From: a virus
IMG/VR virus record: IMGVR_UViG_3300024991_000003
Length of the DNA: 54,953 bases
Strand: one strand, 5' to 3'
Shown here one piece after another: positions 490 to 54,953 of the stretch. Every line of letters starts with the position of its first letter. Positions within the stretch are counted from its first letter, which is position 1. The position numbers were made by a program, and so were the translations under genes. Under the pieces are notes generated by a model. It had not been told where the DNA came from. It searched no databases and saw only the letters and a list, made by a program, of their open reading frames with translations.

Positions 490-676
490 ATTACCGCACA
501 CACCTTGACAATCAAGCTCACAAACCCCATTGTCCAAATCAGGCCAAGCGCTACGGCGCATGACTGGCTCAGGTGGCACACCTTTAGAACCGGACAATAT
601 CGGGTAGTCCTAAATTCCCCCGGCGCGCAGCGATAGGCAAGGCTGCAAAACAGGCCCAAATTTCGGAGTAACCGAT

Positions 677-1261
677 ATGTATACCGCACCTCGCCACCCC
701 GATTACATCGCCCGCAAGCGATTTGCGCTTGCCGTCGAGCGCGCCGCGCGCCTTGATGCGATCAATGGCCATCCCAATAATTGCGGCGCATATGCGGCCG
801 ATAGCGTTCTCTATTATAACTATCGAGCGGCATATGCCCGCGCTCTGGCATGGAAAGCACATTGCAACGCTGAGATCGTGGCACAAACCCACGCCGCTAT
901 CATTGACGCGCAAATTTACATCGCAACGCTGCAAGTGGGGCATATCTGGCGCGGCACGTTGCCTGAGGCCTACGCGCGCTATCCGCACTCCAATTGGTTG
1001 CGCATGATTTGGAAGGCCACGGCGCAATCATGTTTGAATGACGTAACGGTTTACGCTCGTTGGGACGCATCAAACGCCATTACCCGTATCGAGCGCCGCG
1101 CGCCTACTTGGGTTTTCCATGATGGCCGATGCATGCCCCATATCTTGGCACAAGCGCCTAAAACCCGCATCAATGCCCGCTTCATGGGCGGCCATGATCC
1201 TATCTATGATATGCGGGCCGATTGCTTGAATTGGGCACTTATCGCATCTTGGACAATTTAA
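677..1261 (+). CDS. hypothetical early protein (194 aa)
   Basis: Track ORF; ATG 12 nt after GGAGTAAC (665..672); first gene after the control region; no motif recognised. Confidence 0.7.
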   Translation: MYTAPRHPDYIARKRFALAVERAARLDAINGHPNNCGAYAADSVLYYNYRAAYARALAWKAHCNAEIVAQTHAAIIDAQIYIATLQVGHIWRGTLPEAYARYPHSNWLRMIWKATAQSCLNDVTVYARWDASNAITRIERRAPTWVFHDGRCMPHILAQAPKTRINARFMGGHDPIYDMRADCLNWALIASWTI

Positions 1262-1276
1262 CGGAGTAACCACACC

Positions 1277-1699
1277 ATGCTTAAAATGCCTTTCACACCG
1301 TCCGAGCGTAAGGCCATTGATAAGGCTTTTGACGCCATCACTCATCTTTGCAGCGAAACAAATTGGAATGATGCACCCACATGGCGCGCAGGTATTGCTG
1401 CACTCCGCAAGGGTGGTAAACCAGCTTGCAAATGGGAATTGCGCGCAAGAGCCATCAAACCATGGTATCATGGCGCAACCGATTGGCAGGCTAATAAACC
1501 GCTGCATGATTGCCCGATTGATTATGCGCCGTGGTGTGTCCAATTGTGGGCGCTTGGCGCAATCCAGATGCGCGACAATCCTAGCAAGCCTGAGATGCAA
1601 GAGGTGCTGCAATATGCCCCTCAGGCTATTGCAGCTTATGACAGGGCGCGTGATGCATGGGGTGATACAATCACGCGCCGTGCTCATAAAGGGGAGTAA
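1277..1699 (+). CDS. hypothetical early protein (140 aa)
   Basis: Track ORF; ATG 14 nt after GGAGTAAC (1263..1270); its GAG-TAA end forms the next cassette. Confidence 0.75.
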   Translation: MLKMPFTPSERKAIDKAFDAITHLCSETNWNDAPTWRAGIAALRKGGKPACKWELRARAIKPWYHGATDWQANKPLHDCPIDYAPWCVQLWALGAIQMRDNPSKPEMQEVLQYAPQAIAAYDRARDAWGDTITRRAHKGE

Positions 1700-1704
1700 C
1701 AGCT

Positions 1705-2043
1705 ATGACTGTAACCTGCAAAATCCAGCCCGATGGCAATTTGCTCATTACCGCAAACAACGCAATGCGCAGTGAGATTGCCGATGCATTGCACTCAGGC
1801 CGGTCAAACGCCGCCATATGGGCAGACCTGCTAGAGCCTTACGCATGCAATGGCTCATTTGCCGATTGTGAGGGTCTGATAGCGCTTTGGGACGGCCCTG
1901 CCATTTGTGAATGGGTGGACTATACTTTAGCCGGTGACCCCGTCCCTATGGGCCGCATTTGGGCATTTATGCGATATGAGGTGGAGTGCCCATTGCAGCA
2001 ATTGGCGCGCTATGGACGTTGCATCTTTAGGGGTGTGCCGTGA
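1705..2043 (+). CDS. hypothetical early protein (112 aa)
   Basis: Track ORF; ATG 12 nt after GGAGTAAC (1693..1700). Confidence 0.75.
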   Translation: MTVTCKIQPDGNLLITANNAMRSEIADALHSGRSNAAIWADLLEPYACNGSFADCEGLIALWDGPAICEWVDYTLAGDPVPMGRIWAFMRYEVECPLQQLARYGRCIFRGVP

Positions 2044-2252
2044 TCCACACATACACGCATATTTGCATTTATCGCGATGGATCGCATACTATCGAGCGAG
2101 GTAAACCCATCGATAGTATGCGATTGGTCATGATGGATCACCGCAACAAAATCGGCAATCGGGCTGACTTCTTGGAGCAAATCAACCGCTGGAATAGGCA
2201 AGCCATTATCGGCAATCTATCCGGCCTCACTCATATCTACGTAGCGGAGTAA
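2040..2252 (+). CDS. hypothetical early protein (70 aa)
   Basis: Track ORF; GTG start overlaps the upstream TGA (GTGA); ends ..VAE-TAA inside the next cassette. Confidence 0.6.
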   Translation: MIHTYTHICIYRDGSHTIERGKPIDSMRLVMMDHRNKIGNRADFLEQINRWNRQAIIGNLSGLTHIYVAE

Positions 2253-2257
2253 CAGCT

Positions 2258-2620
2258 ATGACACATTTTGTAATCCATTCCAGCGGCCCCAATGGCGTTA
2301 AATTTGACGTTAACGCCATTCCGTCCCAATCGCCTAGCGCGCTATGGGACGGTGTGAATGAATGTTTCATTCGTCCCTGCCCCGAAGATATGGAGGCATT
2401 CCTTCCTTATCGCTGGCGCAAAGCATGGGAGCGCGCGGGGCGACATTTTTGGTTTGATAAGCATGGCGGTATCGATGCCGATACGGGGCGATACACCGGC
2501 ACAATCCCGCATATCACTTTGCTGGATAGGCGCGGCAAATTTCTCACAACGCTTTATGCCATCCCTAGCGCTGACTTTAACCCGCGCGCTATGTCATTTG
2601 CCCATATCAAACCGGAGTAA
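2258..2620 (+). CDS. hypothetical early protein (120 aa)
   Basis: ATG 12 nt after GGAGTAAC (2246..2253); C-terminal LLDRRGKFL resembles LFDGRGKYL in 4655..5035. Confidence 0.75.
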   Translation: MTHFVIHSSGPNGVKFDVNAIPSQSPSALWDGVNECFIRPCPEDMEAFLPYRWRKAWERAGRHFWFDKHGGIDADTGRYTGTIPHITLLDRRGKFLTTLYAIPSADFNPRAMSFAHIKPE

Positions 2621-2627
2621 CCACAAC

Positions 2628-2870
2628 ATGCATGATCCTAAAGCCATTCGCCTATTTGTCCGAGCAAGCCGAGAAGCGCCGCGCAATCGATACCTGCAAG
2701 CATCGCTGGACAATCTGACAAAGCACTATCTCAGCGGTCAATTTTGCAAGCTAAAGGCGCTGCGATTGCTGGCAAACAACGCGCGGGATTATGATCGCAA
2801 TGTTACGCCCCCCATTGCGCGGGATTTTGCGGATTTGGTATTGACCGCATGGCAAAATGGGCGCATTTAG
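2628..2870 (+). CDS. hypothetical early protein (80 aa)
   Basis: Track ORF 2358..2870 trimmed to the ATG 14 nt after GGAGTAAC (2614..2621); the upstream part overlaps 2258..2620 out of frame. Confidence 0.65.
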   Translation: MHDPKAIRLFVRASREAPRNRYLQASLDNLTKHYLSGQFCKLKALRLLANNARDYDRNVTPPIARDFADLVLTAWQNGRI

Positions 2871-2926
2871 CAGGCTCAATGCAACGCAAACCGGAGGCCA
2901 CACGGCCCCAAACGGAGTAACCGACA

Positions 2927-3184
2927 ATGACAAGTGAACTTTTCAAGGCAATGATCAAAACGGAAGCGGCATTTAACCGCGACAATCTTTCGCTTGAAAA
3001 GATGCGAATTGCAGATGGTGCGCGTAAAACGTATTATGATGCGCTCGAAAAGGCGCGCACCAATTGGCGGTCCGTTGTTCACAAAAATAAAGAAAGTGCA
3101 GAGGAAAACGCAAATGATACCGACGGAACGCATGAAGATGCGCTTTACTGGTTTGAAATTGCGGAACGCTCACTTGATTTTTAA
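2927..3184 (+). CDS. hypothetical early protein (85 aa)
   Basis: Track ORF; ATG 13 nt after GGAGTAAC (2914..2921). Confidence 0.7.
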   Translation: MTSELFKAMIKTEAAFNRDNLSLEKMRIADGARKTYYDALEKARTNWRSVVHKNKESAEENANDTDGTHEDALYWFEIAERSLDF

Positions 3185-3203
3185 TAGAACGGAGTAACCC
3201 CAA

Positions 3204-3422
3204 ATGCGTATCAAACTCATTCTCACGCTTGCCGCGATGTTTTCCGCCATCGGCGCGTATGTGTGGCACATCGCCACGATCACCAATCCCGCCCCGCGCC
3301 ATGCAATCATTCAAATCCTGCACGGTAATATTTATGTGCAGGATCACGATTTAACGCTGAACGATTGCGCGCAGCTTGTCACCCATTACCCCCATGCATT
3401 TTGCGCCAGCCAGCCGGAGTAA
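3204..3422 (+). CDS. small membrane protein (72 aa)
   Basis: ATG 13 nt after GGAGTAAC (3191..3198); N-terminal hydrophobic helix ILTLAAMFSAIGAYVW. Confidence 0.7.
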   Translation: MRIKLILTLAAMFSAIGAYVWHIATITNPAPRHAIIQILHGNIYVQDHDLTLNDCAQLVTHYPHAFCASQPE

Positions 3423-3427
3423 CCGCC

Positions 3428-3709
3428 ATGCATAAAGCAACCGCAAACCGCATCCGCCAAGAGGCCATCGCGCAGCTTGCCGCGCCGGTATTGGACTATC
3501 AAATCCACCCCACAAATATCGAGTTTTTTGATGCGCGCACCGGCCACACCATTAAGCGCGGCAAGCTGCACAAGGGTGAGACGTGGCATTCCTGCTATAA
3601 CCGCCTCATGCGCCCCAAGCCGTGGATCAGCATCCGCAAGGTCGGCGGCATCTGGCATTGGCGCATTGGTCCGATTGGTGGATCGCTTTACATGGCAAAG
3701 GGGCGCTGA
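3428..3709 (+). CDS. hypothetical early protein (93 aa)
   Basis: Track ORF 3365..3709 trimmed to the ATG 12 nt after GGAGTAAC (3416..3423). Confidence 0.65.
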   Translation: MHKATANRIRQEAIAQLAAPVLDYQIHPTNIEFFDARTGHTIKRGKLHKGETWHSCYNRLMRPKPWISIRKVGGIWHWRIGPIGGSLYMAKGR

Positions 3710-3710
3710 G

Positions 3711-3929
3711 ATGGCACATATTACCCGCCCTGAACGATATGAGGCTGCTATTTGGCGCGGCAATGGCTCAGATAGGTCGCGATGGGCAGTAGTAGGCCCG
3801 ACAGGCTGCTATACGTTCCCGTCCGCATATGGGCGCAAAAATGCGGAAAGGCTTGCCGCGCGTATGACAAGGGAAGCGGAGGCATATCAAGAGCGTTTGC
3901 TTGATATTTATATTGGGCCGCGCGCTTAA
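3711..3929 (+). CDS. hypothetical early protein (72 aa)
   Basis: Track ORF 3477..3929 trimmed to the ATG after aGGGGcgctgag; N-terminus MAHITRPE resembles MSHITRPD of 4445..4648. Confidence 0.6.
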   Translation: MAHITRPERYEAAIWRGNGSDRSRWAVVGPTGCYTFPSAYGRKNAERLAARMTREAEAYQERLLDIYIGPRA

Positions 3930-3940
3930 CGCTATTCTAG

Positions 3941-3966
3941 AGACACCCTTGCATGCAAGGGTGTCT
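3941..3966 (+). promoter_or_regulatory. Intercistronic perfect 26-bp palindrome (RNA hairpin) with conserved flanks
   Basis: agacacccttgcatgcaagggtgtct equals its reverse complement; flanked by TTCTAG (3935..3940) and TATGAGTAA (3967..3975), as at 5036..5080. Confidence 0.6.
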
Positions 3967-3996
3967 TATGAGTAACGTAAACCGGAGTAACCTAAC

Positions 3997-4308
3997 ATGG
4001 CACAACATATCTATCAGGTTGAATTGACCGACACATTTGGCGGCGAAGCTAATTATTCATGGGTTAACCGCGCAACCGTCCGCATGCCCGAATTGACGCA
4101 TTACGGTTATACGGGCGCTCCCGATGGATCATATGCCCGCGCAAACCGCGCATATAACCGCGAATTGATGCGCCGCGCAAAGGCGGCAATGGGTCTGACT
4201 GGTGTGCGCGGTGTCACTACACAATGCGGCGATGGCTTGGAATTCCGCCCTTACGGTCTCTTGCAAGTCATGTTTGTGACTTATGAGGATATGGCGGAGA
4301 CGTTTTAA
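3997..4308 (+). CDS. hypothetical early protein (103 aa)
   Basis: Track ORF; ATG 13 nt after GGAGTAAC (3984..3991). Confidence 0.75.
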   Translation: MAQHIYQVELTDTFGGEANYSWVNRATVRMPELTHYGYTGAPDGSYARANRAYNRELMRRAKAAMGLTGVRGVTTQCGDGLEFRPYGLLQVMFVTYEDMAETF

Positions 4309-4439
4309 TGGATAATCCCCGCGCAATTCTCGCCGCTCTGGCGCTCTTGCTCTTGGCAATGGTGGCGCTGCAATACATGGGTGTGGCAAGCTGCAACGGC
4401 GATGCACAATGCATTCGCGCCACCAATCAACCGGAGTAA
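4308..4439 (+). CDS. small membrane protein (43 aa), absent from the ORF track
   Basis: Hand translation MDNPRAILAALALLLLAMVALQYMGVASCNGDAQCIRATNQPE; TAATG overlap with the upstream stop; ends GAG-TAA in cassette 4433..4440. Confidence 0.55.
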   Translation: MDNPRAILAALALLLLAMVALQYMGVASCNGDAQCIRATNQPE

Positions 4440-4444
4440 ACGAT

Positions 4445-4648
4445 ATGTCACATATTACCCGCCCTGATGGCTCCAAGGTACATTGCTACGCGCCGGGGGA
4501 TGGTCATTTGTCCTACGCAGTGGGATGTGAGGGCAAGGCGCGATCCTATGACATAACAGATGATGGTGCGCGCCAGCTTTGCCCCAATGGTTGGGAAGTT
4601 TACAAAGATGGCCCTTATCATCGCGCGCGCCCCATCAAACCGGAGTAA
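4445..4648 (+). CDS. hypothetical early protein (67 aa)
   Basis: Track ORF 4409..4648 trimmed to the ATG 12 nt after GGAGTAAA (4433..4440); ends ..IKPE-TAA. Confidence 0.65.
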   Translation: MSHITRPDGSKVHCYAPGDGHLSYAVGCEGKARSYDITDDGARQLCPNGWEVYKDGPYHRARPIKPE

Positions 4649-4654
4649 CCCATT

Positions 4655-5035
4655 ATGATTTACAATGATCGTTTTGATCCTCGCATTATGCCCCGCTCTG
4701 GCGCACCGCGCGTTGTCGGTATCAAGTCCGAATATACCGAAACGATTGATGGTTACATTTGCCGCCGCTCTCGCGTTGTATATGCTATTTGTGGGTGCGA
4801 CTATGGATGGTTGCATACTGCCGGCGGCGATATTCGGACGTGGGGTAGTCGGTCCGGTGCAATGGCGCATTTAAAACGCCATATTCTGCCATTCGATTAT
4901 GGTGCGCGCCGCGACTATCGCAAAATCGATTTGTTTGATGGGCGCGGTAAATACCTTTGCAGCACAACATGGGCGCGCGATTGCAATGAAGCGCTAGACC
5001 ATTGCCACGGCGCATATAAGGCGCGTTTTGCATAA
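4655..5035 (+). CDS. hypothetical early protein (126 aa)
   Basis: Track ORF; ATG 13 nt after GGAGTAAC (4642..4649). Confidence 0.75.
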   Translation: MIYNDRFDPRIMPRSGAPRVVGIKSEYTETIDGYICRRSRVVYAICGCDYGWLHTAGGDIRTWGSRSGAMAHLKRHILPFDYGARRDYRKIDLFDGRGKYLCSTTWARDCNEALDHCHGAYKARFA

Positions 5036-5042
5036 TTCTAGC

Positions 5043-5069
5043 AGCGCCCTTGCCATGCGTAGGGGCGCT
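5043..5069 (+). promoter_or_regulatory. Intercistronic hairpin with the same flanks as 3941..3966
   Basis: agcgccc-N13-gggcgct; preceded by TTCTAG (5036..5041) and followed by TATGAGTTA (5071..5079). Confidence 0.5.
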
Positions 5070-5093
5070 ATATGAGTTATGGGAGTAACGACA

Positions 5094-5450
5094 ATGACAA
5101 CGCCAAAGACACTTACGCCCGCGCAACAGGCTTTGCTTGCGCGGGATGATTTGCATCATAGCGCCGTGGCATTTGCCGCCGCTTGCCGCGCATCGCGGGA
5201 ATGGAGTGAGATGTTTTCCCTCGCACTGGCTCGATACGGCAACCATGGCGCGGCCATTAGCGGTTGCGGGCGCAATCACTTCCCCGATCACGTTAAGGAC
5301 ACCTTGCGCGCTCTGGCACGTCGATGTGCGGAGCGTTGCGATACGGCCCACGCTGCGCGCCCTCACGGTGTCCGAGCGGCCACAATCCGTAAGCTAGGGC
5401 AAACTGTGGCAACGCGCGATGGCGTAGGCTTCTATGGGCCGCAACCGTAG
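5094..5450 (+). CDS. hypothetical early protein (118 aa)
   Basis: Track ORF 5079..5450 trimmed to the ATG 12 nt after GGAGTAAC (5082..5089); last gene of the array. Confidence 0.65.
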   Translation: MTTPKTLTPAQQALLARDDLHHSAVAFAAACRASREWSEMFSLALARYGNHGAAISGCGRNHFPDHVKDTLRALARRCAERCDTAHAARPHGVRAATIRKLGQTVATRDGVGFYGPQP

Positions 5451-5488
5451 GCCCAAACCGCCACAAATCCCCCGCTCCAAAGTAATAG

Positions 5489-5525
5489 AGCGCCATGCGG
5501 GTTAGGCATGGCGCTTTTTTGTTTT
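5489..5525 (+). terminator. Rho-independent terminator closing the early array
   Basis: agcgccatgc-gggttag-gcatggcgct (10-bp stem) followed by tttttgtttt. Confidence 0.8.
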
Positions 5526-5532
5526 GGCCCCC

Positions 5533-5553
5533 AGCGCCCGCCATAGCGGCCCC
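5533..5553 (+). repeat. 21-bp direct repeat, copy 1
   Basis: agcgcccgccatagcggcccc is identical to 5612..5632; CCATAGCG occurs three times in 5541..5627. Confidence 0.9.
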
Positions 5554-5611
5554 ACGGAGAGCAAGTAATGCATAGGCACCCATAACCCCCGCGCAACGCC
5601 AGACGCGCCAT

Positions 5612-5632
5612 AGCGCCCGCCATAGCGGCCCC
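5612..5632 (+). repeat. 21-bp direct repeat, copy 2
   Basis: Identical to 5533..5553. Confidence 0.9.
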
Positions 5633-5784
5633 CTCAACCTACCCGGTCTGGGGATGGTCCGGCACGTCCGGCATGCCTCCCTACGCCCCTTGACGCGCAT
5701 CATGTAACGCGCATCAAACCATTGAAAACATTGGGTTTTGCCAGCGATCGCAGGGCCGCGGCCACCTGATGTAATCGATTGTTG

Positions 5785-5804
5785 TGAACCTGAATTCAGG
5801 TTCA
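5785..5804. promoter_or_regulatory. Perfect 20-bp palindrome (operator-like)
   Basis: tgaacctgaattcaggttca equals its own reverse complement; non-coding, ~100 bp upstream of the iterons. Confidence 0.5.
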
Positions 5805-5899
5805 TATTTGACGAAAAATCCAATAAAATCAGTCACTTAGCCCCAAACTGTAACGGTTACATCAGAAAAATCGTTTAAAATCAATGGGTTACGGTTGCA

Positions 5900-6037
5900 G
5901 GGGCGGGAGAACCCCGATCAGGGGCGGGAGAACCCCGATCAGGGGCGGGAGAACCCCGATCAGGGGCGGGAGAACCCCGATCAGGGGCGGGAGAACCCCG
6001 ATCAGGGGCGGGAGAACCCCGATCAGGGGCGGGAGAA
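5900..6037 (+). repeat. Tandem array of 6 perfect 21-bp units plus a 12-bp partial 7th (iteron-like)
   Basis: ggggcgggagaaccccgatca at 5900, 5921, 5942, 5963, 5984 and 6005, then ggggcgggagaa at 6026; one GATC per full unit. Confidence 0.95.
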
Positions 6038-11063: not shown

Positions 11064-11405
11064 TTAACCGGCCCAGCAAATTCCGCCGTTGTCACCGAGC
11101 GCGCCAATTTTGGCAGCAACGGCAGATGCGGTAAGAAAATAATTCCCACTCTGCAATTCCAGTTTCACCCAACCCTTGCCGAGCATTTTAAAAATCTTAC
11201 CAATATCGTTGACACTAAGAGATGTATATTCCACCGTCCCACGATAAATGGAACAATCGTCCCAAAGTACCCCGTCAAATGACCGCTTGGGTTTCCATAC
11301 ACCACCGCTGAGAGCAGTAAGCTGAAATTCTACCGCATCAATTCCGAGACACGGTAGCGATTTACCATCCCAATTCACAGGATGAATGGCTGTCAGATTA
11401 ACCAT
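11064..11405 (-). CDS. hypothetical protein downstream of the tail fibre (possible fibre accessory/assembly protein, 113 aa)
   Basis: Track ORF; its ATG overlaps the fibre stop (TGATG); function inferred from position only. Confidence 0.55.
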   Translation of the reverse strand: MVNLTAIHPVNWDGKSLPCLGIDAVEFQLTALSGGVWKPKRSFDGVLWDDCSIYRGTVEYTSLSVNDIGKIFKMLGKGWVKLELQSGNYFLTASAVAAKIGALGDNGGICWAG

Positions 11406-14400
11406 CAGCCAAACTCCGACCGCCAGCGGGCATAGGTTTCAAATACCAACTGGTTGCCTGTATCCGTCCAATGGATTTTATCGCTATAAAGCAGGCCCTG
11501 CGCATTAAAGTTGGTCTGGTCGAGGCGCAGCAGTGGGACGCCCAGCGATTTACAGACCGAGATCGCCACCCCAACGTAGGCATCAAATGCCGTTGCGGTA
11601 TAAACGCTTGACGCAAAGGTGGCATAATCCGGGCGCGACGGCGTAATCATTTCCACGCGCGAAGGATTGGAAGCTAGCAGCGCATTAAGCACCCGCGTAA
11701 GGTTTGTGCGATATGCAGCCAGACCGAGCGCCGTGGTGGCCTGCCCATGATAGAGCGCATCATTGGTCATCAGCGCCACCGTGTATTCGGGCGCGGCATT
11801 GCTGCCCTGACCGCTGATCGCCTGAGCCTGCGCGATGATAGATGTCAGCGCCGCTGTAGTGAAATCCTTGCACTGCCCCCCGCCATGCGCCTGCCGCATG
11901 TGCAGGATCGGCCCGAGCGTACCGCTGGCCGCGAGGACGGCAGGGCGGCGGATCAGACCGGTAAGCTCAACCGGGCCACCGCTGGCGCGAATGGCATAGG
12001 TGCCGCTGGCCGTCTGGCCGGTCGCGGAAGGACCGGTGTAGCTGTCCAAAACGGTCGTACCCGCCGCGCTGACCGTCTTATAATCTGTCCCGTTATACGA
12101 GAAGATCAACGACCCCGCGCCGGACTGTTGCGTATAAAACGCATCGACGAACGCATAGGCCCCGGTGAATGTCACCGATGCGCCATCAGCCAGAATGGTC
12201 GATTGACCAAGCGGGCCGTTGGTGCCCGCCGTGGTCGTTCCCGCGATGGTCAGGCCATAGAAAGCGGCGGTATCCGCACCCGTCCCGGTCACATCGCGAA
12301 TGACCGAGTTGGCTACCCCTTGCCATGGTGCAGCATCGGGGGCTTCCTCGGCATTGAGCCATGCCGAAAGCAATTGCCACCAGTGCTTTTGCATGCTGGT
12401 GGCATAGAAGTGCGCTGAAAGGCTGTCACCGATCAGTACCTTGGGTGAATTGCTCGACGCGCATTGCGCCATGGCCGAACGCACTTTAAGACGTAATGCG
12501 CCATCGGTAGGGCGGCGTGGGATCGGGTAATAGACACCATTGACGTAAATTTTACCTTCACCCCACAGACCCTCACCGTTGTATGGCAGACTGGTAACAG
12601 CAAAGGTTCCCATCGGCACGTGCGGTGTGGGATGTGCGGCACGTGCTGCAACAAATGCTGCGGTGCTGTCAGATGTGCCGGTATTATCCGCACCGGACAG
12701 CAAGCCGATACCTTCGGTAGCCATAGCTCGTGCAGCAGATTGTACCACATCAAGTGTGGCCTCTGCGCCAGATTGGCGCGGGCTGATACCAATGGCCACC
12801 TGCCAACCGATGCCGGTCTTGCTATTGGCAACGGCGGTTGAAGCGGTATTGGTGCCGGGGATGCCAGCAACATAGCGCAGTGATGATCCAGTCAATGTAG
12901 CAATGGATGTACCGGCATTTGCACCATAAATACCGATATACTGCCCAGCCGTAACAGGAATGAAGCAGGTAAAAGTGTTAACGCCGTTGACCAAGGTGAT
13001 GGGTGTTGCAGAAACAAGCGTAAACTGGTTCGATCCATTTTTGGTGGCAACAATGATTTTGCCGGGACCGGCAGCATTAACATGGCACGATACACTTACC
13101 AGACGTCCACTTTTAGCAACCGCTTGTTCGCTAAAAGTGGTATATCCACCTACAATGTTGTAGGTGAGTGCTGTTGCCGGATAAAGACCGCCGACATTGG
13201 TAGAACCGGTAATCTGATCCTGTAATTTGCCATCGGCTGCAATCGCGCGCGCAATCTCACCCGACTGTACCGTATAGGACAATGCGGGCAAGATGTTGGC
13301 CGATGTTGCCTTGGCGGTGTTTGTTGAGGGTAGGCCACTGGTGTAAGTCAGTGTGTTGCCGGTTGACCCTGTGGTGATGGAGAATGAACCAGCACTGTAA
13401 CACCCAACCCAATATCCAACGCCAACATAGGGGTTCCAATTGGTGAACGTATTGGCTCCAGAAGCCAGAGTTACGTCCTTGCTCTGTTGGATCGTGACTG
13501 TACCGTCACCATTATCAGCACAAACAACCAACGTGGCCGCAACTGATCCGGCTGCCGGATTGTAAACCGAGATACCTTTAAGTTGCCCCTCACTTGCAAC
13601 TTGAGAAGTTGCAAAGATCGTCAGGCCGTTGCCGCTGCCCGTAGTGCCCGCGACGGCAGGATAGGTGCCGCTGGTGGTGAGCGTACCATTAACTGCGGTA
13701 TTCACCAGCGCAATCGCAGTGGTATTGGTCGAAACACTGGACAGCAGCGCATCGATGGTGTTGCTATTGCCAGTGATCTTATCGATAACCTTACCGGAAA
13801 TCGACCACCCAAGCTGTGCTTGATTGGTGCTGGTTTTTGCAGTACCACCGCTGGTCGCAGAGCCGGGAAGGCCAACGGTAAACCACGCTGCGCCACTGAT
13901 CCCATTGTTCACACCGAGAATGCTTGTTGCAGCGTAAGCGGCAAGGAATTGACCTGCGCTGATACGCGGGTTCCAAGTGGTGATAGTATTGGCACCGGTG
14001 GTTAATGTTACCGCCTTGGTGAGCGGATTGCCTGCACTATCGTTTACCACCCGAACGGTGCCATCACCATTGATGGCCACAATCGCCAGCGTTGCAGCCC
14101 CGCCAGCCGTAGCATAGACCGATGCACCGACCAAAATGCCAGAGATCGCAAAAGGCGTCTGGGAAAATACGGTGACATTATTGATGAAAGCACCATTGCC
14201 GACCGTTGCCGGATAAATGCCACCCGTCCCGGCCAAACCATCCTTGGTAATGGTCAACTGTGCCAGACCAAACGGGGACGTGGCAAGTGCTGCGGCATTG
14301 TTGCCCCACGCGCCAAGGCTCAGCCCATCGCTGGTGGGTGCGTAAAAATTGCGACCAACCGGAATTGTATTAACCGTGGCGGTTGGAATAGTCGCGCCAG

Positions 14401-14812
14401 TAATCCCGCCTGACAGCAGCGAGAGAGTTGGCGCACTGTTGCTGGTCGAGAGGCCGGGATTGTCAATGCGAACTTGCGCAAGTTTCCCATCGCTTCCGAT
14501 TTGATAGGACCACTGAAAACCTTCCGGTCCACCTGAGGTGGCACCAACATACCAACCCGGTGTACCGCCTGATCCCGTTGCAATTCCGCCGCTGATCCCG
14601 GTCACTTCATGAGGTAATGCAACGGGTGTCGTGCCCAGAGTGTTTTGGATCGATGCTGCAACGGTGGCATTCGCGCTAGCAATGATCAAATTTTGCAGCG
14701 GTGCAGATAGCACTGCAAATGCATCAATCACACCCTGACGATCAGGTTTCCAATTCGGCTGAGGCGGATCACCAAAAAGGGCAGTACGCAGCATTTCAAC
14801 GGGATCGGTCAT
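11405..14812 (-). CDS. tail fibre/tailspike with three internal ~140-150-aa repeats and a C-terminal SGNH/GDSL hydrolase domain (1135 aa)
   Basis: G/T/A/N-rich beta-type sequence; YPA..NGDGTV..G(A/V)NT..WNP module three times; SGNH blocks LIGDSLS, MTNDAL and DKIHW in the C-terminal third. Confidence 0.75.
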   Translation of the reverse strand: MTDPVEMLRTALFGDPPQPNWKPDRQGVIDAFAVLSAPLQNLIIASANATVAASIQNTLGTTPVALPHEVTGISGGIATGSGGTPGWYVGATSGGPEGFQWSYQIGSDGKLAQVRIDNPGLSTSNSAPTLSLLSGGITGATIPTATVNTIPVGRNFYAPTSDGLSLGAWGNNAAALATSPFGLAQLTITKDGLAGTGGIYPATVGNGAFINNVTVFSQTPFAISGILVGASVYATAGGAATLAIVAINGDGTVRVVNDSAGNPLTKAVTLTTGANTITTWNPRISAGQFLAAYAATSILGVNNGISGAAWFTVGLPGSATSGGTAKTSTNQAQLGWSISGKVIDKITGNSNTIDALLSSVSTNTTAIALVNTAVNGTLTTSGTYPAVAGTTGSGNGLTIFATSQVASEGQLKGISVYNPAAGSVAATLVVCADNGDGTVTIQQSKDVTLASGANTFTNWNPYVGVGYWVGCYSAGSFSITTGSTGNTLTYTSGLPSTNTAKATSANILPALSYTVQSGEIARAIAADGKLQDQITGSTNVGGLYPATALTYNIVGGYTTFSEQAVAKSGRLVSVSCHVNAAGPGKIIVATKNGSNQFTLVSATPITLVNGVNTFTCFIPVTAGQYIGIYGANAGTSIATLTGSSLRYVAGIPGTNTASTAVANSKTGIGWQVAIGISPRQSGAEATLDVVQSAARAMATEGIGLLSGADNTGTSDSTAAFVAARAAHPTPHVPMGTFAVTSLPYNGEGLWGEGKIYVNGVYYPIPRRPTDGALRLKVRSAMAQCASSNSPKVLIGDSLSAHFYATSMQKHWWQLLSAWLNAEEAPDAAPWQGVANSVIRDVTGTGADTAAFYGLTIAGTTTAGTNGPLGQSTILADGASVTFTGAYAFVDAFYTQQSGAGSLIFSYNGTDYKTVSAAGTTVLDSYTGPSATGQTASGTYAIRASGGPVELTGLIRRPAVLAASGTLGPILHMRQAHGGGQCKDFTTAALTSIIAQAQAISGQGSNAAPEYTVALMTNDALYHGQATTALGLAAYRTNLTRVLNALLASNPSRVEMITPSRPDYATFASSVYTATAFDAYVGVAISVCKSLGVPLLRLDQTNFNAQGLLYSDKIHWTDTGNQLVFETYARWRSEFG

Positions 14813-15482: not shown

Positions 15483-15685
15483 CACAACGCCTAATCGATA
15501 TTCGCGAGGAAGCACTCAGCCACGTCCAAGTCGCGGTTGCTGAAATTCTCGCCGCAAACGGTAAGATGCAGAGTGCGCTCAAACCGCTGTTTGAAGAAAT
15601 GGACGGTATTGAGGCACCAAACAGTTTCAAGGCGGCAATCATTCGCGATATTTTCGCCAAACTTAATGAGGGGGTTGGAGCGTGA
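15479..15685 (+). CDS. hypothetical protein (68 aa)
   Basis: Track ORF; ATGA overlap with the upstream stop. Confidence 0.65.
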
Positions 15686-15897
15686 GTAAATTTATCCCAC
15701 TCCATATCATAGCCGAAGCTAAATACAAACTTGGCGACCTGTTGCAAAAGAAATCCGGTGCTGCTTGGCACGGCACTGTTGTTGGATTTTACAGCACTGC
15801 GTTGACGCGCATTGGCTATTGCATCGAAAGCAGCAGGGAACCGGGCAGCGTCCAGCTTTACCCTGAAAGTGCGCTTGAACCTTGGGACGGTAACTGA
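15682..15897 (+). CDS. hypothetical protein (71 aa)
   Basis: Track ORF; GTG after GGAG; GTGA overlap with the upstream stop. Confidence 0.6.
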
Positions 15898-54670: not shown

Positions 54671-54864
54671 GATGCAGCGTTGTGATGCACCATTGAGATG
54701 GTGCGATGCGATCATGGCAGAGATGCAACGTTGAGATGCGATCACGGCAGAGATGCAGCGTTGTGATGCACCATTGAGATGGTGCGATGCGATCATGGCA
54801 GAGATGGTGCGATGCGATCACGGCAGAGATGCAGCGTTGTGATGCACCATTGAGATAGCTTGAT
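54671..54864 (+). repeat. Nested GATGC/GATC repeat array
   Basis: The 51-bp unit at 54671..54721 is identical to 54752..54802; its first 29 bp recur at 54828..54856; 11 GATGC words counted. Confidence 0.9.
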
Positions 54865-54953
54865 GATCGCTAGATCTGTTGCATTTGGACGTGATTAGCC
54901 CTGATAACCATATAGGCTAATTTGACCACTGGCTTGTTTCACACCCCCCCCCC
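54827..54953. repeat. Terminal duplication, exact copy of 1..127
   Basis: See 1..127. Confidence 0.95.

Follow-up and report, generated by a model that had tools for sequence, protein, structure and literature searches.

Layout of the window and its putative early block

The viral sequence IMGVR_UViG_3300024991_000003 (the window, meaning the whole stretch of 54,953 nucleotides (nt) that was analysed) represents a phage genome of ~54.8 kb that assembled as a circle and is given here as one linear copy; the two ends are identical over 127 nt (bases 1-127 = 54827-54953), the overlap of a circular assembly. The large terminase (TerL) has 61% identity to its counterparts in the Rhizobium phages vB_RglS_P106B and RHph_X2_24 (genus Rigallicvirus), and related terminases were found in contigs from bins of Aestuariivirga, other Alphaproteobacteria, Sulfitobacter, Yoonia and Cypionkella. 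The phage is thus of siphovirus type, and its host is most likely an alphaproteobacterium. Downstream of a repeat-rich non-coding leader begins a block of small genes, putatively early (Table 1), in which the heptamer GGAGTAA recurs just upstream of one start codon after another. This cassette precedes each of the 12 early genes that have no start/stop overlap with their predecessor (12/12). The three early genes that lack it, starting at 2040, 3711 and 4308, are those at overlapped junctions (GTGA at 2040, TGA-n-ATG at 3707-3713 and TAATG at 4306-4310).

The genes themselves have little in common. The count of 15 takes in the open reading frame (ORF) 2040-2252, which has a GTG start and was called in one contig only. 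No two of the 15 proteins are similar to each other (BLASTP E <= 1e-3), and 13 of them have no homolog in ~150 related loci; structural and packaging genes match 37-115 of these loci. Where early proteins do match PHROGs, it is to families of unknown function only, as with gene W11 (ATG 3997), which corresponds to phrog_22729.

Table 1. Cassettes and other mapped features of the putative early block.
Feature	Position	Strand	Start codon served	Upstream junction	Stop-start gap (nt)	Remarks
Putative early block	677..5450	+				15 small genes, divergent from the terminase genes
Cassette 1	665..679	+	ATG 677, at 12 nt	heads the block, no gene upstream		cGGAGTAACc
Cassette 2	1263..1279	+	ATG 1277, at 14 nt	intergenic; upstream stop 1259-1261	15	
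Cassette 3	1693..1707	+	ATG 1705	TAA (1697-1699) is stop of gene 1277-1699 (..KGE)	5	gGGAGTAACa
Cassette 4	2246..2260	+	ATG 2258	TAA is stop of ORF 2040-2252 (..VAE)		17 nt identical to cassette 3
Cassette 5	2614..2630	+	ATG 2628	TAA is stop of gene 2258-2620 (..KPE)	7	
Cassette 6	2914..2929	+	ATG 2927	intergenic	56	archetype form ACGGAGTAACCGACAATGAC
Cassette 7	3191..3206	+	ATG 3204	intergenic	19	
Cassette 8	3416..3430	+	ATG 3428	TAA is stop of gene 3204-3422 (..QPE)	5	
Two-tier RNA hairpin	3929..3978	+				AATTCTAG-stem-TATGAGTAA; no U tract; z = -5.2; 5' of cassette 9
Cassette 9	3984..3999	+	ATG 3997 (gene W11)	intergenic		hairpin 3929-3978 upstream
Cassette 10	4433..4447	+	ATG 4445	TAA is stop of gene 4308-4439 (..QPE)		GGAGTAAA variant
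Cassette 11	4642..4657	+	ATG 4655 (gene W14)	TAA is stop of gene 4445-4648 (..KPE)	6	
Homologous second two-tier hairpin	5031..5081	+				no U tract; z = -3.9; directly 5' of cassette 12
Cassette 12	5082..5096	+	ATG 5094	intergenic		gGGAGTAACg; hairpin 5031-5081 upstream
Intrinsic terminator	5487..5527	+				12-bp GC-rich stem and T run; closes the block

One motif at nearly every early start codon

The 12 copies had been picked out in a sequence-only reading of the window, and all lie exactly where that reading placed them, on the + strand and with 12, 13 or 14 nt from the start of the motif to an ATG (12/12). In public metagenome contigs of this phage, independent gene calls begin at each of these ATGs. 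On the + strand of the 55 kb, GGAGTAA occurs nowhere outside 665-5088. A scan for the motif away from start codons returned only two extra copies (8049 and 31638), both on the minus strand inside + strand genes and at chance level. Altogether the window holds 14 copies against 2.28 expected, a number reached in 0/100 shuffles and far from chance. The ~49 genes checked outside the block have varied Shine-Dalgarno (SD) sequences (AGGAG, GGAGG, AAGGA, GAGG), and none combines GGAG with a following TAAC.

One might suspect that GGAGTAA is simply what a ribosome-binding site (RBS) tends to look like. However, where GGAG stands in RBS position it is followed by TAA in 12/13 cases here versus 17/548 (3.1%) in 1.57 Mb of other phage loci (binomial p ~1e-17), and GGAGtaac is merely sporadic in other phages; a generic RBS form is therefore rejected as the whole explanation. 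The largest number of ORF starts with one common 8-mer at -20..-3 is 11 in the window and 7 in a relative with the same cassette, as compared to a median of 3 over 144 locus strands. The earlier view of the motif as an unusually dense, fixed SD-containing module at gene boundaries, not a coding constraint, thus holds.

Anatomy of the cassette

Eleven of the 12 copies read GGAGTAAC, the copy at 4433 being GGAGTAAA. The conserved unit extends beyond the motif first noticed, to C-GGAGTAAC-C and up to 19-20 nt between phages: over 23 sites in three phages, C is found at position -1 in 18/23, at +7 in 22/23 and at +8 in 18/23, all three positions lying outside the search pattern used. A spacer of 3-5 nt, mostly A and C, separates the cassette from the ATG (often ATGAC). 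GGAG, invariant at 12/12 sites, is a purine-rich core complementary to the anti-SD (CCUCC) of 16S rRNA, with 8-10 nt between it and the ATG, a normal SD distance.

The bases around this core are not explained by pairing with the ribosome. By sequence reasoning that covers the canonical and alphaproteobacterial 16S 3' tails, neither UAACC nor the C at -1 can pair, and extended anti-SD pairing was dropped for that reason. Mimicry of 16S helix 45 (h45) was dropped as well, alphaproteobacterial h45 having GUAGCC rather than GUAACC. A conserved mini-hairpin, CGG-AGUAA-CCG, was considered; positions -1 and +9 show no covariation (judged by eye), which points to conservation of sequence, not structure. 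A promoter scan gave 10 sites versus 8.8 expected, with no consistent association with cassettes and no sigma-70-like promoter within the cassette. Mini-ORFs ending at the intergenic TAAs are no consistent feature either, a single case having been found (ATG 2879, 13 codons).

The stop codon and translational coupling

The TAA of the cassette is the upstream gene's stop codon in six cases, as claimed in the sequence-only reading, which went on to propose termination-reinitiation coupling. This proposal is partly supported and may hold for half of the cassettes. At six cassette junctions the stop-start gap is 5-7 nt, within the range of -8..+10 nt taken as predictive of coupling (PMC10666635). 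The other six lie outside that range, either in front of the first gene or after gaps of 15, 19, 56, 58 and 67 nt, and at longer gaps such as 15-67 nt coupling is reduced or nearly abolished (PMC10666635). Over six phages the TAA serves as upstream stop in 13/32 cassettes, no more often than the one-third expected of a random frame (p = 0.24), so that termination-reinitiation explains only part of the pattern. Moreover, the most clearly coupled genes, those at the three overlapped junctions with stop-start distances of -4, -1 and +1, have no cassette, which argues that the cassette is mainly a stand-alone initiation site. Where the gap before a cassette is 15-67 nt, or where no gene precedes it, ribosomes must be recruited by the cassette alone.

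What, then, is the stop codon for? A TAA is found within -12..-1 of 12/15 early genes versus 9/49 others (p = 2e-5). In three relatives with cassettes of their own (loci L113, L202 and L123, see below), all counted cassettes contain a stop triplet; among other SD-led starts the share is 35-47% (p = 0.03-0.10). The sequence differs but the stop is kept in variants such as GGAGTGAC. A stop triplet just 3' of the SD is a consistent design feature. We read the TAA as a built-in terminator that makes each junction self-contained, with coupling when frames coincide, and not as the reason that the cassette exists.

Conservation across related phages

TerL-anchored searches yielded ~125 related loci. 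Three diverged relatives, with TerL 57-75% identical to that of the window, have the same cassette in the same block at the same 12-13 nt spacing: L010 (TerL 75% identical; 4 copies, with the cassette at 4/7 genes), L021 (= L077, L169; 60%; 7 copies, mostly after gaps of 24-82 nt and following the same non-overlap rule as the window) and L125 (= L175; 57%; 4 copies, with the cassette at 3-4/11 genes). Two ~56% GC phages, L168 and L190, hold 2-3 copies. A 19-20 nt string, ACGGAGTAACCGAC(A)ATGAC, is common to the window, L021 and L125, and cassette 6 of the window is identical to a cassette of L021 over 20 nt. The four main phages have no DNA similarity in common in their early blocks, apart from the cassette itself and two short patches of coding sequence, so that breakpoint mapping among them is impossible. 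Where orthologs can be compared, as for W14 in four phages, the SD followed by a stop is kept and the flanks differ. With early genes differing across phages and the cassette kept, the cassette is the constant part of a hypervariable ORFan array.

Other relatives have uniform cassettes of their own in the corresponding map position: in L113 ATTGGAGG occurs six times and in L202 GGAGGGTT six times, with further examples in L123 (AAGGAGTAATGAA), L201 (CGGAGCGA) and L195 (GGAGTGA plus AGGAGGAAA). Also recorded are AAGGAGTAATGAAYTATGCAAAA, found three or four times in L123/L124, and CAACAACGGAGCGA in L201. Nearly all of these cassettes have a stop triplet in the spacer. Since several relatives thus have their own version, a uniform early initiation region is a recurring family trait whose sequence is lineage-specific.

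Other phages occasionally have GGAGtaac as an ordinary RBS: it appears in the gene tables of the unrelated proteobacterial phages KL1 and AH2 (PMC3483164), and sporadically in L168, L190, L179 and L183. New here are how nearly it monopolises one block, the way it persists when genes turn over completely, and the occurrence of lineage-specific uniform cassettes across the family. A scan of IMG/VR with the 18-mer CGGAGTAACCGACATGAC was uninformative, ~26/33 matches (L162-L194) being to one conserved ~277-aa gene (MTSVSTINVPFHG...) of prophages with 34-42% GC, an unrelated family in which a coincidence has been multiplied by homology. Scans of viral contigs with W01 and W14, and of metagenome contigs with the small terminase (TerS), gave no match.

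Possible recombination between cassettes

A short sequence reiterated at gene boundaries might also serve as microhomology for cassette shuffling, as the sequence-only reading suggested. For this phage itself breakpoints cannot be placed, since its several public metagenome contigs all match the window at 99.9% identity or more. Indirect support comes from survival of the cassette through gene turnover, from repeats that run into codons and from one indel between relatives.

Within genomes, identities between cassette copies often extend past the start codon and into the opening codons of unrelated genes. In the window, both 17-nt identities noted earlier are real (2606-2622 = 4634-4650, cassettes 5 and 11; 1693-1709 = 2246-2262). 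Genes W10 and W13 (3708-3733 versus 4442-4467) have the start codon and seven codons in common, 24/26 nt encoding M-A/S-HITRP, the rest being unrelated; the pattern resembles a recombination junction placed just within the coding sequence. In L010, 24 nt are repeated in two copies, and g4 and g7 of L202 have 28 nt in common (MIKY). In L021, three near-identical intergenic units of ~45 nt (L077 6868-6912, 7955-7999 and 8244-8288), ACGGAGCCCTCTAGGCGGCTCTACATACGGAGTAACCGAC(A)ATGAC, head three unrelated genes; the predicted hairpin of this unit is not significant (z = -0.7). On average, identity in the left flank of the cassette extends over 1.96 nt within phages versus 0.77 nt between them, as expected from homogenisation of copies inside a genome.

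Only one pair of relatives, L202 and L203 (80-89% identity in patches), is close enough for breakpoints to be placed. They differ by one whole gene, and at the L203 junction the sequence upstream of the ATG is like the initiation region of the extra gene and that downstream like the next gene (35/40 nt). The indel is resolved no more than ~12 nt from their own cassette, of which a single clean hybrid copy is left, and this one case is consistent with the earlier idea of shuffling at the cassette. This is what cassette-to-cassette recombination predicts, and we regard it as supportive rather than decisive.

Weighing the explanations

How might these observations fit together? The account we prefer, and for which we consider the case about evenly balanced, is that the sequence is the standard stand-alone initiation cassette of a hypervariable ORFan early operon, kept uniform by selection together with recombination between copies. 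The cassette, C-GGAG-UAA-C-C followed by a 3-5 nt A/C spacer and AUG, would be the ribosome entry site of every non-overlapped early gene; the UAA behind the SD ends the upstream gene when in frame (in ~40% of cases), 5-7 nt before the next start and within coupling range. Genes are replaced completely between related phages while the cassette stays. Purifying selection on a functional initiation site would keep cassettes uniform, and recombination or duplication between copies would move, delete and replace genes as cassette-bounded units.

Several points weigh against this account. We infer the label 'early' from the layout of the block (divergent orientation, leader, small ORFans, terminator). 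Predicted RNA accessibility is only marginally above that of other RBSs (0.52 versus 0.46, p = 0.05-0.09). Nine to ten bases are kept beside orthologs that are 35-55% identical in protein, for which recombination alone is insufficient, and the persistence of bases belonging neither to the SD nor to the stop needs direct selection on them. The L202/L203 case concerns a sister lineage with a different cassette sequence; furthermore, such breakpoints are expected anyway, given that intergenic space is almost all cassette and that recombinants with damaged genes are lost to selection. Finally, early SDs are mostly varied in the closest cultured relatives (P106B and RHph_X2_24), so not all of the family shares the trait.

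The conserved bases that neither pair nor terminate are the natural starting point for another explanation, namely that the cassette is a class-specific signal: a trans-acting nuclease or repressor of phage or host would read GGAGUAAC(C) and inactivate or repress the early mRNAs jointly, resembling RegB/S1 or RegA in action while differing in site and protein. We think this rather unlikely. It would account for the confinement of the cassette to one gene class, late genes that are presumably highly expressed being without it, and for the retention of C at -1, +7 and +8 across phages with 57-75% TerL identity in a stretch whose UAACC the 16S 3' tails cannot pair with. There is precedent, too: the RegB/S1 site is an 11-nt extended early SD, GGAGRAYARAA (PMC1702504), and SELEX with RB69 RegA yielded UAA triplets (PMC3014915). 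However, the site here, GGAGUAACC, violates the RegB consensus in that positions 8-9 are C. Precomputed Pfam annotation of the called genes, PHROGs (20 proteins) and Pfam (20 more) gave no RegA- or RegB-like family, a few small ORFs being outside these scans, and no anti-cassette (complementary) RNA is encoded in the genome. The different uniform cassettes of relatives and the variants that keep the stop (GGAGTGAC) fit a generic design more easily than a single reader. In its boldest form, in which a sequence-specific factor (a nuclease or repressor unrelated to RegA/RegB, or a host ribosome-associated protein) reads GGAGUAAC(C) and switches the ORFan early class off, or on, post-transcriptionally, the idea strikes us as unlikely, slightly more so than the signal in general. 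If true, lineage-specific cassettes would be operators that co-evolve with their reader, and any gene that comes to lie behind a cassette would join the early regulon. GGAGAAAA is the same-spacing counterpart named for GGAGUAAC, and GGAGAAAAC the control counterpart named for GGAGUAACC.

Alternatively, the cassette might be nothing but the optimal RBS in this host, at which each gene arrived independently under selection for maximal early translation, and might have no role in recombination or regulation. The sporadic GGAGtaac of unrelated proteobacterial phages (KL1, AH2, L168, L190, L179 and L183), the A/C-rich and slightly more accessible flanks and the fact that uniform cassettes differ among host groups are all in its favour. 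If this were the whole story, though, the highly expressed late genes of the same genome should not be without the cassette. Exact convergence over 9-20 nt at 12 unrelated genes is unlikely where GGAG and spacing alone are known to matter; there are few near-variants, sites being either exact or unrelated; and within-genome repeats that reach into first codons point to copying, not convergence. We consider independent optimisation doubtful.

Tandem duplication of one ancestral gene and its RBS, leaving a paralog array, or else chance clustering would fit the longer identities of some pairs (17 nt in the window, 24-45 nt in relatives), but is highly implausible and essentially refuted: no pair among the 15 proteins is similar, the same cassette fronts different genes in other phages, and the cluster beats 100/100 shuffles.

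If the preferred account of a selected and recombining initiation cassette is true, a ribosome-site cassette of ~10 nt would form a constant socket for interchangeable ORFan genes, through which sets of host-takeover genes are renewed. It would also offer a simple, sequence-defined system for asking which bases near the SD matter beyond rRNA pairing. In practice the cassette could mark the early class in uncultured relatives and flag the true start codons of ORFans, and it is a candidate portable RBS with built-in stop for alphaproteobacterial operon design.

Other features of the block and the genome

The two hairpins of Table 1 have a common form (AATTCTAG, GC-rich stem, TATGAGTWA) and divide the block into 10 + 4 + 1 genes. 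They could act in processing or as stabilisers, in the manner of the RNase III sites of T7 early mRNA.

Several elements lie in the leader (130-540): 48 nt repeated directly and without mismatch at 345-392 and 442-489, with the near-palindrome TTGATAACTTATATAACTTATCAA inside and a third copy, partial and inverted, at 132-152; A-tracts phased at ~10 nt (235-335), which suggest bent DNA; and TTGACA-N17-CATTGT (504-532), a candidate early promoter. Together these may be the operator/promoter architecture of the block. Beyond the block (5533-6037), 21 nt are repeated directly at 5533-5553 and 5612-5632, a palindrome of 20 nt occupies 5785-5804, and a 21-nt unit (CAGGGGCGGGAGAACCCCGAT) is repeated perfectly in tandem at 5898-6037, in 6.7 copies; the copy number varies among metagenome contigs of this phage. 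This tandem repeat, situated between the early block and the gene block that follows, resembles iterons or an origin. Further afield, a poly-C run (118-128) marks the end junction, a 71-aa gene (15682-15897, +) matches the R67-type dihydrofolate reductase family (PF06442, DHFR_2), and an ORF of 1135 aa (11405-14812, -) is without any Pfam match.

Comparison with known systems

In lambdoid phages, short conserved boundary sequences have been proposed to guide the exchange of modules and so give rise to mosaic genomes. The idea is the same here, that of short common sequences at gene boundaries guiding module exchange, but lambdoid boundary sequences are sporadic and not one reiterated RBS, whereas here one cassette at 12/15 junctions is at once a ribosome site. 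Translationally coupled junctions (PMC10666635, PMC6728339) are likewise matched in part: six junctions have the upstream stop inside the downstream RBS, and three others overlap. Unlike at such junctions, half of the cassettes are not at a stop, the TAA is kept where nothing terminates, and the sequence is identical from junction to junction, an identity that coupling does not need.

The RegB/S1 system of T4 offers another likeness, with a GGAG-type SD extended by conserved 3' bases in early initiation regions and rare in middle and late genes (PMC1702504, PMC3014915). The differences are that the 3' part here is UAACC, with C where RegB sites exclude it, that no RegB homolog was found here in the Pfam and PHROGs scans, and that the host belongs to another class.

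The closest parallel is with the promoter-early stem-loop (PeSL) cassettes known from T4-type phages (Arbiol et al. 2010, PMC2839356; Comeau et al. 2014, PMC4122927). In both systems short conserved cassettes are reiterated among small ORFans in hyperplastic early regions, their 3' end consists of the SD and start codon of the next, variable gene, and their versions are lineage-specific; two cassettes of the window (9 and 12) even follow a stem-loop. However, the conserved unit here is the initiation region only (~10-20 nt), with a fixed stop codon. It has no sigma-70-like promoter, a stem-loop is present at just 2/12 cassettes and has a U tract at neither, and it is found at almost all junctions of a single operon, whereas PeSLs head separate transcription units. 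Copy-to-copy recombination that inserts, deletes or replaces genes has been demonstrated for PeSLs by mini-circles; for the present phage we infer it. With no promoter, mostly no stem-loop, a position within an operon and a fixed stop, the cassette is not a PeSL, though by analogy it plausibly works as a minimal one, an RBS-only counterpart. Were this so, an idea established in T4-type myoviruses of gammaproteobacteria and vibrios (PMC2839356, PMC4122927) would extend to alphaproteobacterial siphoviruses, with the element reduced to the initiation region.

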